Assembly (NCBI GenBank): GCA_030431455.1
Contig: JAUIJE010000002.1
Location: forward strand, 1,294 to 65,293
Direction: 5' to 3'
Source: a bacterium
GTDB lineage: Bacteria > Myxococcota > UBA727 > JAUIJE01
DNA length: 64,000 bases
Within the stretch, counting starts at the first letter, position 1. Each line of letters opens with the position of its first letter. This document shows, one piece after another, positions 15,001-24,000 of the stretch. Position numbers: made by a program.

Positions 15001-18000
15001 AACGTCGACTATGACCCGTTGGTGACCCCCACCGGGGGCCGGTTCTTTGACCTCACCGCGTCGTTCGCCATCGTGCTCGACGATTTGTCGGCGGAGATCA
15101 TCAACCGCTACCTCGTGCGTTGCGACACCCCCAACCCCGCGCGGGACAACACCTGGCGCGACGTGAACGTGGAAGTCGACGCCGGCGCCGGCCTCGGCGG
15201 CGAAGACACCGGCACCTACTTCATCGAAGGCGGCGCGTTGCGCATCGATCCCATCCACAAGGTCGCCGACGTGGGCAGCACCTTCACCGTGGACGTGGTC
15301 GCGGACTCCGTGTCCGACCTGCAAAACGTGCACTTGGTGCTCGACTTCGATGAGAGCTACCTCGACTTCGTCGACGCGGTGCCCGGCGAGCTCCTCGGGC
15401 GCGACAGCAGCACCGGCCCCGTGCCGTCGCCGCTGGTGCTCCTCGGGGTGGGCCACGATCCCGCGACGGGCCGCATCGAGCTCGACGTCGCCCGCCAGGT
15501 GTCCGAAGGCACCGACGGCACCGGCGTGGTCGCGCAGCTGACCTTCACCATGACCGCCCTGCCCCCCGACGACCTCGACGCGAGCGGGGTGGAAGACCCC
15601 AACCAAGCCGACGACCTCACGTTCGTGCTCGGCCAAGGCGGGGTCTACCTCGAGAACGATTCGTTCGACGTCATCAGCGTGACCGCGGTGCAGAACGGGG
15701 ACATCGACGGCAACGCCACGTTCCTGCTCGGCGACTTCGACACCGATGGCGACATCGACCTGTTCGACTTCAACATCCTGGTCCAGAACTGGGGCAGCAC
15801 CACCGCGGATCTGCTCACCGGTGACATCGGCCCCGCGTCGGGCGTCGAGCCGGCCCTGAATCCGGCCCCGGATGGAATCGTCAACTACCACGACTTGTTT
15901 GTCTTCACGCGCATGTACAACTGGTACCGAGCCCAGTGACATGTGCGGGCGCCGCCTCACCGGCGGCGCCACCGCGGGGGACGTCGGTGACGCGTCCCCC
16001 GCAAAAAGTGGCCAGGGCGTCTTTTACGCAGGAGACGTCCCGACCTGAACGGGGTTCCCGACTGATTCCCGTTCGAACCCTGAGGCGTTCCGCGCAGAAC
16101 GCGCTTCAGGACCAGACGCGAGGTCTCTGCCCCTCGCACGAACAGCGGGCGGCGCTCCTTCGGGGGCGCCGCTTTTTTTTCGAAGGGGGAGTTCCTCCCC
16201 CCTCGGACCTCACGACTCGCAAGCTCGTCGATATCGGCTGGCCATTCCGAAGGAATGGCTTAAGCAACGCAAAGCGTTGCCACCTCACCCCCGAGTCGTG
16301 GCCATTCCGAAGGAATGGCTTCAGCAACGCGACAGCGTTGCCGCGCTCCAAGGGCCTTTGGCCCGTCTCGCCGGGTCGTATGCGTACGCATACGACGAGC
16401 TTGGGCTGGGGATATGTCGACGTCTCCTGCGAGGCTCGCACGCGGTGCGTACGAGGCAAGCCTGTCGGAATCAGTGGGGTGCGTTGGGGCGGGGCTCAGC
16501 GTTTCTGGGCGAGGAGCACCCAGGCGAGCGGCTCGACCTGGTGGAACGACAGGTCAAATGTGGAGAGCCGCAGCGCGTTGATCGAAAAATGCCGCTCGAG
16601 GGCTTCGGTGATGTCGCGGGCGGAGCGGCGGGGCGGGCCAAAATCGCGCGGCGCGCCCTCGGTGCTGCCGATGAGGCTGAGCCAGAGGCCGCCGGGCACG
16701 AGCTGGTCGGCGAGGCGCGCGGCGAAGCGGGCGCGGTCGGTGGGGTGATCAAAACAATGAAAACACCCGCGGTCGAACGCCACATCATACGGTCCGGTGG
16801 GCGGCAGCTCGTGCAGGAAGTCGACGGTGGCGGCACGAATGGTGACGCCCGCGGACGCCGCCCGGTGTTGGGCGCGCTCGACGGCCAGCGGCGCCAGGTC
16901 GACGGCGGCGACGTCGAACCCGCGCTCGGCCAGCCACACCGCGTTGGTGCCGGTGCCGCACCCGATCTCCAGCAGGCGCCCGGGGCTCAGCAGGCCCCCG
17001 TCGACGTGGGCCTGCAGGTGCGGGTCGACCACCCCGGTGTCCCAGGGCAGGTCGTTGGCTTCGTAGTTGTCGTTCCACGCGCGCTGGCTGGCCTGGGTCA
17101 TGGCGTCTCCTCGTCGGGGATGTGCCCACCATAGGGTCGTCCGGGGTGGCGCTCAAGCCGACTGGACGACCGCGCCCGGGGCGCCTAGATCGGGACCCCC
17201 GGAGGAACCATGTCGCTGCCCATCGCCCCCCGCGTGCTCTTGTGTCTCGGCCTTCTCGCCGCCGCGGCCTGTGGTTCGCTGCCCGAGGACGAGCCCGCGC
17301 CCACCCCCTACGACGGCGACGGGCCGGATGCCCCGGCGCTTTCCAGTGACTTTGGCTGCGTGGCCGACTACCGCCGGGTGGGGGGCTTGTACTTGAAAAA
17401 CGTGCTCGGCCTGACCGAGCAGGCGGTGGCGGTGGCCGAGTCCGACGGCGATTGGCACTTCCCGGTGGGCACCATCATCCAGGGCCAGCCCAACGAGGCG
17501 ATGCTCAAGCGCGGCCCCGGCTTTTCCCCCGAGACCGGCGACTGGGAGTACATCACCCTCGACAACGACGGGACGCGCACCGTGATCACCGCCCGCGGCA
17601 CCACCGACGTTCAGGGGGTGGGCCAGACCTGCGCGGCGTGCCACGCGCCCGCCGGTGACCAATGGGACTACATTTGTCAGGACGATCACGGGTGCGAGCC
17701 GATCCCCGCCTCGCCGGTGCTGTTCGAGACGTTGCGCAGCAGCGACGCCCGCTGCGCACAATAGGACCCTCAGAAATCTGAGGCTGTCTCAGCCGCGGTT
17801 GGCGCTGGCGTTGCCGGTGCGCGCTTTGTACTGGTGTGCCATGCGCACGATTCCGTTTTTGCTGTTGGGTTTGGGTTTGGTGACGTCGCTCGCGGCGTGC
17901 GGGAGCTGCGAGCCGGACCCCGTCGGCGATGGCGACGGCGACGGCGACGGCGATGGGGACGGCGATGGGGATGGCGATGGGGACGGCGACAATACATGTA

Positions 18001-21000: not shown

Positions 21001-24000
21001 GGGTGGGGGCGGACCTTCCGGGGGCCGCGGGGGCCCCTCCACCGCCGGCTCGGCGTCGGGCTCACCGGCGGACGCGGGCCCCGCGAGCAAACCCCCCGCC
21101 ACCAGCAAGACCATCAGCCAGACGATGCGCGCCACGCGGCACGATACCCTGGGGCCGTGACCAGCGGAAGCGAGGGCGCCACGGGCGACGGGCCCGATCT
21201 CCCAAACAAGACGACACAGGTTTCTGACGTGGGTGAGGCGTGGCAACGCTTTGCGTTGCTCAAGCCATTCCTCTGGACTGGCGGCACGTACGCCGACCGA
21301 GCAGACTCCCATCGACCTCATGCGCGGTGAACAAGGCCCGGCTCGAACGCGCCGAGGGCGATTTTGAGACGGGTGAGATGTGTTCTAGAGCCGCCAGAAC
21401 GTCCACGCCGGCGCGTCCCGGGTAAAGCGACCGGACCGGTGCTTGTCGAGAGACTCCAGTAACATTTGTTTGTAGAGGTCGGCCTCGGGCTGGTAGCGCC
21501 GGGTGAGACCGGCCTGCAGATTGTAGAGCCCTTCCCCGTCGGGGGTGAGCACGTAGGTCCGCGCGTAGAACCAATAGAAGAACGGCTGATTCACCTCTCG
21601 TTCGTCGTCGACCATCAGCTCCCAGTCCGCGTTCTTGATCGCGGGGATGTCGGGCCAGCTCTGCTTGCGAATGTCGACCCAGAGGGGCACGAACTCCTCG
21701 CGCACGAGCTTGATCACCGCGGGGTCACTGAGCGCGCCCTCCCGGAGCGCGTGTCCGCCAATTCAAAGCAGGCCGTCGACCTCACCCGACGCGCCCACGA
21801 GCAGGATCGGCTTCTGCTCGAGCATCGCCTGGGCCCGGGCCCGTTCGTAGTCGTGGTGCCAGCCGATGGCCATGTGGGGCTGCCACGGGTCCGGGATGTG
21901 GGTGACGGGGGCGCAGGCGGTCACCGCGAGGGTGACCGAACAGGCGACGAGCGCGGTGCGCATAAGACCTCCGGCCGCAGGGGTGCACTCCCGATTGGCG
22001 GGGCAGGCACAGATCTGTCACCGGAGCCCGGTTTTTTTCGCCGCGGGGTGGCCGGCGCGGTCACATGCCGCCGGGGGCGGGGTGTGGCATACAGACGGAA
22101 CAGGAGGTTTTTATGCAGAGCGGTCGGGTCGTGATGGGGTGCGTGATGATGGCGGTGGTGGCCACCGGGTGTTCTGTCACCGATGAGAAAGGCAACAGCT
22201 GCGGCGCGCTGGACGCGCTGACCAATTCCGCCGACGAGACGTACTGTCCCGACGACGGTGCCCCCGACGACTGCGACGACCTGCTCGATGACTTCATCGG
22301 CGCGTTCGCCGATTGTGGCGGCGTCACCGAACAAGCCCTGCGCGCCGAGCTGGAGGAAGGCGACGGCCTGCCCTTCGACTGCGCCAACGCGGTGGCCACC
22401 ACCACCGGCTACGATGACTGCCGGGACGCGTACCGGCCGGGCAACTACACCTGCGACGGCAGCATCCCCGACGTGGACAGTGACATTTGTTCGGGGGTGA
22501 TCTTGGTGGACGCGAACGAATAGCCGCGCGCCCGACGTCTTGAAAAAAGAAAGCCGCTCTCTCGAGCGGCTCTTCTTTTTGTGCACAGCGGCGTCGTTCA
22601 GTAGCGGTAGTGATCCGGCTTGAACGGGCCCTGTTGGGGAATGCCAAGGTACTCCGCTTGTTTCTTGCTCAGCTTGGTGAGCTTGGCCCCGACCTTGGCG
22701 AGGTGCAGCTCGGCCACCTTCTCGTCGAGGTGCTTGGGCAGCACGAACACCTTGTCGGTGCTGTAGTGCCGCACCGAAAGCTGCGCGTCTTCCCAGAGCG
22801 CGATCTGCGCCATGGTCTGGTTGGTGAACGAGTTCGACATCACGAAGCTCGGGTGACCGGTGGCGCAGCCGAGGTTGACCAGGCGGCCGCGGGCGAGCAC
22901 GGTGATGCGCTTGCCGTCGGGGAAGATGAAGTGGTCGACCTGGGGCTTGACCGCTTCTTCGCGAATCTCGGGGTGGTTCTCGAGCCAGGACATCTGGATC
23001 TCGGAATCGAAGTGCCCGATGTTGCAGACGATGGCTTCGTCTTTCATCGCTTGCATGTGATCGCCGGTGATGACGTCGCAGCAACCGGTGGAGGTCACGA
23101 AGATGTCGCCGACCTTGGCCGCGTCTTCCATGGTGGTGACCTCGAAGCCTTCCATCGCCGCTTGCAGCGCACAGATGGGATCGATTTCGGTGATCATCAC
23201 CCGGGCCCCGAGGCCTTTGGCGGATTGGGCGCAGCCCTTGCCGACGTCGCCGTAGCCGGCCACCACGACGACCTTGCCCGCGATCATCACGTCGGTGGCG
23301 CGCTTGATGCCGTCCATGAGGGACTCACGGCAACCGTAGAGGTTGTCGAACTTGGACTTGGTCACCGAGTCGTTCACGTTGATGGCGGGGAACAGCAGCT
23401 TGCCGTGCTCGGCCATTTCGTAGAGGCGGTGCACCCCGGTGGTGGTCTCTTCGGACACGCCGAGGATGTCTTTGTGCATCTTGGTGAAACGCTGCGGGTC
23501 CTCTTCGATGGATTTTTGCAGCGTACGGTACACCCACTTCATCTCTTCAATGTCAGTGGAGTCGGGGGACGGGACCTTGCCCGCTTTTTCGAACTCCACG
23601 CCTTTGTGGATGAGCATGGTGAGGTCGCCACCGTCGTCGAGCAGGAGGTTGGGGCCTTGGCCGCCCTCGAACGCGGTGACCTGGGTGAGGATCTGCGCCC
23701 AGTACTCTTCGAGGCTCTCGCCTTTCCACGCGAACACCGGGGTCCCGGTGGCGGCGATGGCCGCGGCGGCGTGGTCTTGGGTCGAGTAGATGTTGCAGCT
23801 GGTCCAGGTCACGTCGGCGCCGAGGTCCTTGAGGGTCTCGATCAGCACCGCGGTCTGGATGGTCATGTGCAGGCAGCCGGCGACGCGCGCGCCCTTGAGC
23901 GGGTGCTTGCCCTTGTACTCGTCGCGCAGGGCCATGAGGCCGGGCATCTCTTTTTCGGCGATGGCGATCTCCTTGCGGCCCCAGTCCGCGAGGGTCATGT

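Follow-up and report, generated by a model that had tools for sequence, protein, structure and literature searches.

A small two-hairpin intergenic repeat, probably REP-like, in an uncultured Myxococcota genome

Introduction

What kind of element is a short double-hairpin sequence that recurs between the genes of one bacterial contig? The question is raised by a 64-kb stretch of an uncultured Myxococcota genome (hereafter the window), in which a first-pass annotation had described a dispersed, REP/MITE-like element of about 45 bp in three copies, two of them direct and in tandem after a large adhesin gene and the third inverted and partly degenerate. Here, we define the unit, look for further copies inside and outside the window, and weigh what it may be. 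The two-hairpin unit is a new example of an ordinary class, the small palindromic intergenic repeats, and nothing suggests more. On balance, we lean towards a lineage-restricted small palindromic extragenic repeat, REP-like and ~57 nt long, that was copied to several intergenic sites in this one genome. Further copies very probably exist elsewhere in the same genome, in numbers that are probably modest.

Three copies of a two-hairpin unit

The full unit is ~57 nt long and consists of two different perfect stem-loops of 8 bp and 7 bp (hp1, 19 nt, and hp2, 17-18 nt, unrelated in sequence to each other), a 4-nt linker and a tail of ~17 nt. Three copies occupy two intergenic sites of the window (Table 1): c2 follows c1 head-to-tail, with 60 nt from start to start, and c3 is inverted relative to both. 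Thus, the sequences and the arrangement given by the first-pass annotation are as described, with coordinates right within 1-2 nt. Its 45-bp unit corresponds to a real 45-nt core, but the homology between c1 (16241-16297) and c3 (21226-21282) extends through the tail (CCAC(GC)CTCACCC.., common to c1 and c3) to ~57 nt at 82% identity. Similarly, the hairpins it called perfect are so in c1, in c2 and in hp2 of c3; in hp1 of c3, a private T>G change (minus-strand G at 21278) breaks one pair. The peptide that it saw in two shadow ORFs is also there, as WQRFALLKPFL in ORFs 16106-16459(-) and 20608-21330(+). In fact, the unit feeds such spurious ORF extensions, with four to six reading frames open.

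Table 1. Coordinates of the repeat copies, their parts and neighbouring features in the window
Feature	Position	Strand	Details
VWA-domain gene	12877-15939	+	
Canonical intrinsic terminator of the VWA-domain gene, outside the repeat	16147-16182	+	12-bp GC stem + T8, MFE -36.8
Copy c1, full unit	16241-16297	+	repeat arm; covariance model 74.8 bits
c1 hp1	16241-16259	+	GCCATTCC-GAA-GGAATGGC, 8-bp stem, loop GAA
c1 linker	16260-16263	+	TTAA
c1 hp2	16264-16280	+	GCAACGC-AAA-GCGTTGC, 7-bp stem, loop AAA
c1 tail	16281-16297	+	CACCTCACCCCCGAGTC
Copy c2	16301-16345	+	covariance model 69.9 bits
c2 hp1	16301-16319	+	linker TTCA
c2 hp2	16324-16341	+	GCAACGC-GACA-GCGTTGC, loop GACA (4 nt)
c2 tail		+	diverged, weakly similar: CGCGCTCC
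Perfect 22-nt palindrome, single-copy, outside the repeat	16375-16396	.	GTCGTATGCGTACGCATACGAC; between c2 and the TPMT gene 3' end
TPMT-type methyltransferase gene	16496-17101	-	
Copy c3, inverted relative to c1/c2	21226-21284	-	covariance model 69.5 bits
c3 hp1	21282-21264	-	GCCAGTCC-AGA-GGAATGGC, one mismatch
c3 hp2	21259-21243	-	perfect; linker TTGA
c3 tail	21242-21226	-	CACGCCTCACCCACGTC
110-aa gene	21385-21717	-	

Neither hairpin is expected by chance. The hp1 motif occurs at three loci against 0.02 expected from shuffles, and the hp2 motif gives four strand-matches at two loci (c1 and c3) against 0.29 matches expected, the ungapped hp2 pattern missing c2 with its 4-nt loop. A covariance model built on the 45-nt core, and applied unfiltered to the full 64 kb, scored the three copies at 69.5-74.8 bits and the best other locus at 15 bits, and thus found no fourth copy and no solo hairpin in the window. 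A 5-kb stretch holds all three copies, and the remaining 59 kb holds none.

Genomic context, folding and variation

All three copies are extragenic, as judged by GC3 phase analysis and Pfam. The tandem pair sits in a 557-bp convergent spacer, between the stop codons of the VWA gene (15939) and the TPMT gene (16496), and c3 in a 250-bp co-directional spacer between the stop of the 110-aa gene (21385) and the start of a membrane-protein gene near 21135. At both sites the hp1-hp2-tail order follows the direction of the upstream gene. The terminator of the VWA gene sits 60 nt upstream of c1, so most VWA transcripts probably stop before c1; being downstream of a strong terminator, c1 and c2 may be transcribed poorly from this gene. 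Rfam 15 gave no match at gathering score in 15500-22000, where three sub-threshold matches (E 0.19-0.38) are due to chance.

As RNA, c1 folds with an MFE of -23.2 kcal/mol (z -3.5), c2 with -26.1 (z -4.4) and c3 with -19.4 (z -2.6). The two-hairpin fold is both the MFE and the centroid structure on both strands (z -2.6 to -4.4) and is kept when the whole 301-nt spacer is folded. Across the three copies, 14 of the 15 stem pairs are invariant and the changes fall almost entirely in loops and linker: the 30 paired columns hold one of the nine variable alignment columns (binomial estimate ~1e-3) or, by an alternative count, one of ten (5e-4). None of the changes among the three copies is compensatory, and RNA structure as such is therefore not demonstrated; DNA or protein recognition, or simply the young age of the copies, would equally account for the conserved stems.

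Copies beyond the window

Are there copies outside the window? Logan assemblies are built at k=31 with every 31-mer kept once per accession (PMC12424806), and where this organism was independently assembled in this way, contigs reach exactly 30 nt into the unit from either side before they end. In ERR3428548, a 3.3-kb left contig ends at 21255 and a 1.6-kb right contig starts at 21248, so that the missing 31-mers span exactly 21226-21277 (52 nt), that is, from the inner c1/c3 homology boundary, which was found independently, to the base before the private substitution of c3. ERR3420974 shows the same right-hand end at c3. One contig that ends at 16270 in c1 implies that the repeat begins at 16241, on the first base of hp1, and contigs that start at 16303 in c2 imply that it ends at 16332, within the variable loop. 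The window copies have no 25-mer or 31-mer in common, and the converging paths must therefore come from other loci. Thus, the outermost 31-mers of the 52-nt stretch of c3 recur at one or more loci outside the window, and the unseen copy is probably identical to c3 over the whole of that stretch. The clustered copies in the window do not by themselves show the element to be dispersed; the copy implied by the assembly graph supports a wider spread. Seven of the 14 Logan contig ends examined fall within the unit, and a contig end at 16258 (ERR3420974) misfits the repeat-boundary model.

In SRR33155351, from a strain 98.9% identical, a contig break coincides exactly with the outer edge of c3 (21285), which could reflect a polymorphism between an occupied and an empty site. 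This break, the probable 52-nt identity of the unseen copy and the adjacent insertion of c1 and c2 are hints at activity.

The searches of relatives and of public collections detected no copy. There is none in 83 kb from the nearest relatives (78-88% AhcY identity), and none at orthologues of the 110-aa gene. Nor is there a copy in ~185,000 species-representative genomes, where all 33 matches are chance ones in coding sequence, in JGI metagenome contigs, where all eight matches are chance, or in viral contigs, plasmids and phages. Six-frame translations compared with 5.8 billion protein clusters, including those of this genome, revealed no near-identical copy overlapped by a called ORF, and this speaks against copies in the hundreds.

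What the unit may be

Could the three copies simply be a local accident? A functionless relic, in which a spacer was duplicated in tandem and once inverted within 5 kb with no mobility, wider family or role, would suit the clustering in the window, the lack of anything similar in the relatives and collections searched, and the lack of a mobility gene: Pfam identified no transposase (including Y1_Tnp/RAYT) and no integrase in ~40 of the ~47 GC3-supported ORFs of the window, those up to ~55.5 kb. We nevertheless find a relic unlikely because the Logan contig ends point to more loci sharing 31-mers of the unit, substitutions avoid the stems, and c1 and c3 have unrelated flanks from the very edges of the unit outward (local score 7; shuffles 7.1 +/- 1.4), as insertion of a discrete unit, but not a segmental duplication, would leave them. 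It is very improbable that a 4.9-kb mobile or invertible segment is bounded by c1/c2 and c3. The 57-nt arms show 82% complementarity, face inward symmetrically and lie 4928 nt apart, and they enclose six small accessory-type genes (a TPMT methyltransferase, a P460-like lipoprotein, a Cys-rich lipoprotein, a GNAT, a SnoaL-like protein and a membrane protein), as cargo might look. Against this, no transposase, integrase or invertase lies within or adjoining the segment, its outer ends have no flanking direct repeat, and its GC is the same as that of its surroundings. Heteroplasmy for an inversion would break contigs at 16283 and 21240, whereas the breaks are at 16270 and 21248, and with two sites only, an inverted orientation arises by chance half of the time.

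The remaining alternatives give the hairpins a role of their own. The palindromes (8-3-8 and 7-3-7) might be operator sites for a dimeric DNA-binding protein that regulates the neighbours or organises the nucleoid; perfect palindromes with invariant arms and variable centres are the pattern expected of dimer sites, the GC of the element (53-61%) is below that of the genome (69%), and the membrane-protein gene that starts 91 nt downstream of c3 is a candidate target. However, the gene 3' ends on either side of c1 and c2 converge, a place where a promoter is not expected, the search of 15800-21800 gave no promoter-like site, and the repeat includes a fixed linker and a non-palindromic tail of 17 nt. 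Identical whole-unit 31-mers at another locus fit the copying of an element better than convergent operators, and we therefore hold operators to be rather unlikely. The first-pass annotation had also suggested terminators. A canonical function does not survive the terminator scan, which recovered the real terminator at 16147-16182 in the same region and detected no U-tract after the hairpins of c1, c2 or c3 on either strand. U-tract-independent ('I-shaped') terminators have been proposed for high-GC bacteria in the mycobacterial literature. Terminators of this type that happen to share sequence would explain stable hairpins downstream of gene 3' ends on both strands, and neither the TPMT gene nor the 110-aa gene has a canonical terminator between its stop codon and the element. 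The missing T-runs speak against them, and terminators of independent origin would have neither the linker nor the 17-nt tail in common, which makes this reading improbable.

We thus return to a REP-like repeat copied between intergenic sites. The unit would be non-autonomous and spread by duplication or transposition, also to positions beside an existing copy, and the mobilising enzyme would be encoded elsewhere in the genome. Transcribed in a 3' untranslated region, each unit would fold into two stable hairpins (~-23 kcal/mol per unit) that may hinder 3'-to-5' exonucleases, or serve as processing or pause sites, and not as intrinsic terminators. The gene served at c3 would be the 110-aa gene. 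At c1/c2 it would more likely be the convergent TPMT gene than the VWA gene, because the latter has its own terminator upstream of c1; palindromic hairpins would read equally well from TPMT transcripts. A stronger version, in which the 57-nt unit is a currently active non-autonomous mobile element of this Polyangia-related lineage, unrelated to GTAG/CGTC REPs and moved by an HUH or other hairpin-recognising enzyme, appears doubtful. If the unit were active and had a dedicated enzyme, it would form a new REP-like system of modest interest. Its value is mostly that of housekeeping: it adds a small palindromic repeat family to an uncultured branch of the Myxococcota, for which a literature search found no earlier description, it makes short-read assemblies of the organism break, and it could be a strain marker.

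Comparison with known repeat classes

How does the unit compare with described elements? MITEs such as the Correia element and ERIC, and palindrome-associated elements derived from IS200/IS605, are likewise small, non-coding, intergenic, hairpin-bearing and presumably mobilised in trans. The present unit is much shorter, its ends match as inverted repeats only over TGGC/GCCA, c1 and c3 have no target-site duplication or flanking direct repeat, and no parent IS is known, so the earlier MITE label lacks support. RIME-type intergenic mosaic elements of rhizobia are units of ~100 bp with two different large palindromes. Compared by description only, they resemble our unit in joining two distinct palindromes in one repeated intergenic unit, and they differ in size, ours being about half as long, and in phylum. 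REPINs and BIMEs are also composites of small palindromes and are regarded as mobile units that are non-autonomous (Bertels and Rainey 2011, PMC3116915; PMC3337134). In a REPIN, one REP is present twice in inverted orientation, and the pair folds into a single long hairpin (PMC3116915; PMC3337134). Membership of this class is ruled out, as c1 and c2 are direct (60-nt period) and hp1 and hp2 are unrelated and side by side.

REPs themselves include GTAG- and CGTC-tagged super-families (PMC3733652; Nunvar et al. 2010, PMC2817692), lie mostly between convergent or unidirectional ORFs, downstream of coding regions, and have negligible head-to-tail dimers; Myxococcota were not among the phyla of that survey (PMC3733652). 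The REP likeness proposed by the first-pass annotation holds in part. In contrast to the single palindrome (20-40 bp) of a REP, our unit has two unrelated hairpins and a 17-nt tail, and neither stem is adjoined by a GTAG or CGTC tag: GGCTG, GTCGTG and CGTGCC precede hp1, TTNA follows it, CAC or CGC follows hp2, and the tail of c3 has the sole CGTC, at its far end, c1 having none. The c1/c2 dimer is head-to-tail, and copies lie 100-300 nt from stop codons. REPs typically exceed 100 copies, against three at two sites in the window and at least one implied outside. They also flank their RAYT (a Y1 HUH transposase), which is absent from the window ORFs scanned; a single-copy RAYT may be encoded elsewhere in the genome. 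The unit shares the following with REPs: short perfect or near-perfect stem-loops (7-9-bp stems, 3-5-nt loops), loops and linker that vary more than stems, restriction to one lineage, a short CCA-like unpaired tail after the stem (here GCGTTGC-CAC), and a strictly extragenic position in convergent or unidirectional spacers, downstream of coding regions (Di Nocera et al. 2013, PMC3733652).

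Anatomy of the repeat unit

The first-pass annotation had described a dispersed element of about 45 bp, with two direct tandem copies (c1 and c2) and an inverted third (c3). All three copies are present in this arrangement. Each carries two hairpins, hp1 and hp2, joined by a 4-nt linker. The length was underestimated: c1 and c3 stay alignable across the 17-nt tail, so that their homology (82% identity) extends over 16241-16297 and 21226-21282. Past these limits the flanks are unrelated, with a local alignment score equal to the shuffle mean. The peptide said to be common to two shadow ORFs is indeed found in both, as WQRFALLKPFL.

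The hp1 motif is matched at all three loci and the ungapped hp2 pattern at c1 and c3, against chance expectations in shuffled sequence of 0.02 and 0.29 matches, respectively. When a covariance model built on the 45-nt core of the three copies was run unfiltered over all 64 kb, the copies scored 70-75 bits and the next-best locus 15 bits. Since no other locus exceeds this value, the window contains exactly three copies and zero solo hairpins.

Positions of the repeat copies, their parts and the surrounding features
Feature	Position	Strand	Remarks
VWA-domain protein (VWA)	12877-15939	+	
Strong intrinsic terminator	16147-16182	+	
c1 and c2	16241-16345	+	
c1 hp1	16241-16259	+	GCCATTCC-GAA-GGAATGGC
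c1 hp2	16264-16280	+	linker TTAA, then GCAACGC-AAA-GCGTTGC
c2 hp1	16301-16319	+	60 nt beyond c1; followed by linker TTCA
c2 hp2	16324-16341	+	loop GACA
Perfect 22-nt palindrome	16375-16396		GTCGTATGCGTACGCATACGAC; single copy in window
TPMT-type methyltransferase (TPMT)	16496-17101	-	
Lipoprotein	17210-17764	+	CxxCH motif
Cys-rich lipoprotein	17841-19097	+	
GNAT acetyltransferase	19084-19566	+	
SnoaL-like protein	19957-20364	+	
Membrane protein	20623 to about 21135	-	
c3	21226-21284	-	
c3 hp2	21259-21243	-	linker TTGA, then perfect hairpin
c3 hp1	21282-21264	-	single substitution breaking one pair; loop AGA
110-aa protein	21385-21717	-	without Pfam match
Adenosylhomocysteinase (AhcY)	22598-24043	-	

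Gene context

The gene map, based on codon-position GC analysis and Pfam (window GC, 69%), places c1 and c2 between two convergent 3' ends. The c3 spacer measures 250 nt and separates co-directional genes. At both sites, the order hp1-hp2-tail follows the direction of the upstream gene. No transposase, RAYT, integrase or invertase was found by Pfam in about 40 of some 47 GC3-supported ORFs, covering the window up to about 55.5 kb.

Other palindromic sequences lie near c1. The 22-nt palindrome, 100 nt downstream of the TPMT stop codon and without a U-tract, may be the 3' hairpin of that gene. In addition, c1 is bracketed by a 9-bp inverted repeat, CACGACTCG/CGAGTCGTG (16210-16218 and 16290-16298), which closes a multiloop around it when the 301-nt spacer is folded; by a rough estimate of chance expectation (about 0.06), it is marginally beyond chance.

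The window has several other features. The lipoprotein at 17210-17764 (184 aa) carries a CAACH haem-binding motif and weakly matches Cytochrome_P460 (E 0.0013, under the Pfam cut-off). Stretches of (GGCGAC/GGAGAT)n at 9350-9670, 10967-11512, 17908-17990, 25477-25728, 38599-38987, 52194-52399 and 60279-60520 encode Gly-Asp repeats in at least seven secreted proteins, in each case right behind the lipoprotein signal peptide, and produce weak false Pfam matches to TrAA12. Two neighbouring genes on the minus strand (27784-29151 and 29152-30030) encode a protein with a C-terminal domain as in copper type II ascorbate-dependent monooxygenases (3e-7) and a fatty-acid hydroxylase-family protein; a divergent TetR regulator adjoins them. 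Farther on, an 849-aa protein (30656-33205, +) has matches to MVP_shoulder (2e-16) and Vault_3 (5e-8), domains of the eukaryotic major vault protein, and a calpain-family cysteine protease (Peptidase_C2, 4e-27; 33215-34687, -) adjoins it on the opposite strand. Judged by these domain matches, a predicted bacterial homologue of vault proteins lies here next to a calpain-like protease.

Folding and variation

On either strand, each unit folds into just hp1 and hp2, at -19 to -26 kcal/mol and with z-scores of -2.6 to -4.4, and these hairpins survive folding of the entire spacer. Of the 15 stem pairs, 14 are the same in all three copies; the remaining pair is disrupted in c3, and compensatory changes are absent. 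Just one of the nine variable alignment columns falls within the 30 paired columns (binomial estimate about 1e-3; a second calculation, for one of ten, gave 5e-4), which shows that the stems are preserved among the three copies. The preserved feature may be structural, as RNA or as a DNA hairpin or cruciform, or may be a palindrome bound by protein; the copies may also simply be young. No T-run follows any stem of c1, c2 or c3 and a terminator scan was blank at all three; the terminator role suggested earlier does not hold in its canonical form. No Rfam family was matched.

Contig breaks as evidence for further copies

Logan contigs are independent k=31 assemblies, in which each 31-mer is present once per accession (PMC12424806). 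A contig therefore halts once it has run 30 nt into a sequence entered from two contexts. The window is matched at 100% identity by the contigs of ERR3428548 and ERR3420974, which break at all three copies. At c3, a left contig (17942-21255; 3.3 kb) and two right contigs (21248-22846 and 21248-22745) between them lack precisely those 31-mers that lie within 21226-21277. The first of these positions is the inner limit of the c1/c3 homology, located beforehand by the repeat search, and the base after the last, 21278, is a private substitution of c3. At c1, one contig ends at 16270, so that the shared sequence begins with hp1 itself (16241); at c2, two contigs start at 16303, so that it ends at 16332, in the variable hp2 loop.

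A simple strain SNP does not explain these breaks, since the broken contigs are long and continuous on their unique side. Given also that c1, c2 and c3 have no common 25-mer or longer, the paths that converge on them must originate elsewhere, at other loci. The same read sets therefore contain at least one more copy, with the outermost 31-mers of the 52-nt c3 stretch; this evidence is indirect but precise. The further copy is probably identical to c3 across the full 52 nt.

Breaks are not all caused by repeats, since contig ends at 12859, 22745 and 22846 lie in unique sequence. The ERR3420974 contig end at 16258 does not fit the repeat-boundary model. Contig ends also fall in the Gly-Asp repeats (11389, 17942 and 17953); at the latter two, taken as a k=31 control, no 30- or 31-mer is repeated in the window. 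Inversion heteroplasmy was rejected as the cause of the breaks, as it predicts ends at 16283 and 21240, unlike those observed.

A contig from another strain (SRR33155351) matches 21285-22237 at about 98.9% DNA identity, encodes an identical 110-aa protein and halts at 21285, right on the outer edge of c3. This is a hint that the element could be polymorphic there, as an occupied or empty site or in sequence.

Distribution in other genomes

The exact 19-nt core GGAATGGCTTNAGCAACGC gave 33 single chance matches in about 185,000 species-representative genomes, all coding and none with hairpin arms. The copies in the window itself went unmatched too, which means that this collection lacks or masks the source genome and that the scan is uninformative on copy number there. 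A gapped 22-nt core gave eight chance matches in JGI metagenome contigs, none with the hp1 5' arm, and zero in viral contigs; blastn against plasmids and phages gave no match. Six-frame translations of the three copies had no match at E<=10 among 5.8 billion protein clusters, a collection that includes the source genome's own proteins. Nowhere does a called ORF run across a near-identical copy, and this speaks against a family numbering in the hundreds.

The best named AhcY relatives belong to MAGs labelled Deltaproteobacteria, Kofleriaceae, Polyangia or Myxococcales, the nearest at 88% identity; the host is thus an uncultured member of the Myxococcota without a close sequenced relative. Synteny downstream of AhcY is not kept in the nearest relatives. 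Directly upstream of AhcY, an ArsR-type HTH and SAM methyltransferase fusion (24085-25257, -) forms a pairing kept in all relatives examined, and everything downstream differs. Homologues of the 110-aa gene were limited to three contigs (64-67% identity) and have no element downstream. The covariance model found nothing above 12 bits in these contigs or in 83 kb around AhcY from four relatives (78-88% identity).

Discussion

In our best reading, the unit is an extragenic palindromic repeat of REP-like type, restricted to one lineage and made up of a discrete, sharply bounded block of 57 nt with conserved stems and variable loops; it has entered intergenic sites unrelated to each other, and on one occasion landed right beside an existing unit. 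The copies might instead be a functionless local duplication, yet the boundaries are sharp and the Logan contigs point to further copies. Nor do they behave as the termini of a mobile or invertible 4.9-kb segment, given that this segment has no recombinase, no target-site duplication and the composition of its surroundings, and that the contig break points do not fit an inversion. Against operator palindromes stand the convergent spacer that holds c1 and c2 and a tail that is not palindromic. If the hairpins were terminators independent of a U-tract, the common linker and tail would be left unexplained.

Other candidates were rejected: a sigma-54 promoter on the reverse strand (TGGCAA..TTGC) has, by eye, a GG-to-GC spacing of 9 or 14 nt, not 10, and for integron attC, CRISPR or dif-like sites the repeat size and arrangement are wrong and no recombinase is nearby.

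Among the roles summarised for REPs are those of barriers to 3'-to-5' exonucleases and of pause or processing sites (PMC3733652, PMC2817692). By analogy, the REP-like unit, once transcribed, would most likely have an effect of this type through its stable 3' stem-loops. Its spread would, in our view, rely on an enzyme supplied in trans.

How close, then, is the unit to known families? It lacks the GTAG or CGTC tag of the tagged REP super-families. Unlike REPs, REPINs and BIMEs, it combines two unrelated hairpins, and its dimer is head-to-tail, an arrangement called negligible for REPs (PMC3733652). No RAYT was seen with it among the Pfam-scanned ORFs of the window, and a high copy number is unproven. 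For these reasons it should not be classed as a tagged REP, REPIN or BIME. It differs from MITEs in lacking both terminal inverted repeats and a target-site duplication. Thus, of the initial label "REP/MITE-like dispersed element", the REP-like behaviour stands, the MITE half falls and family membership is not established. The unit is a new lineage-specific example of an ordinary kind of feature, and its significance would be greater if it proved active and had a dedicated enzyme of its own.
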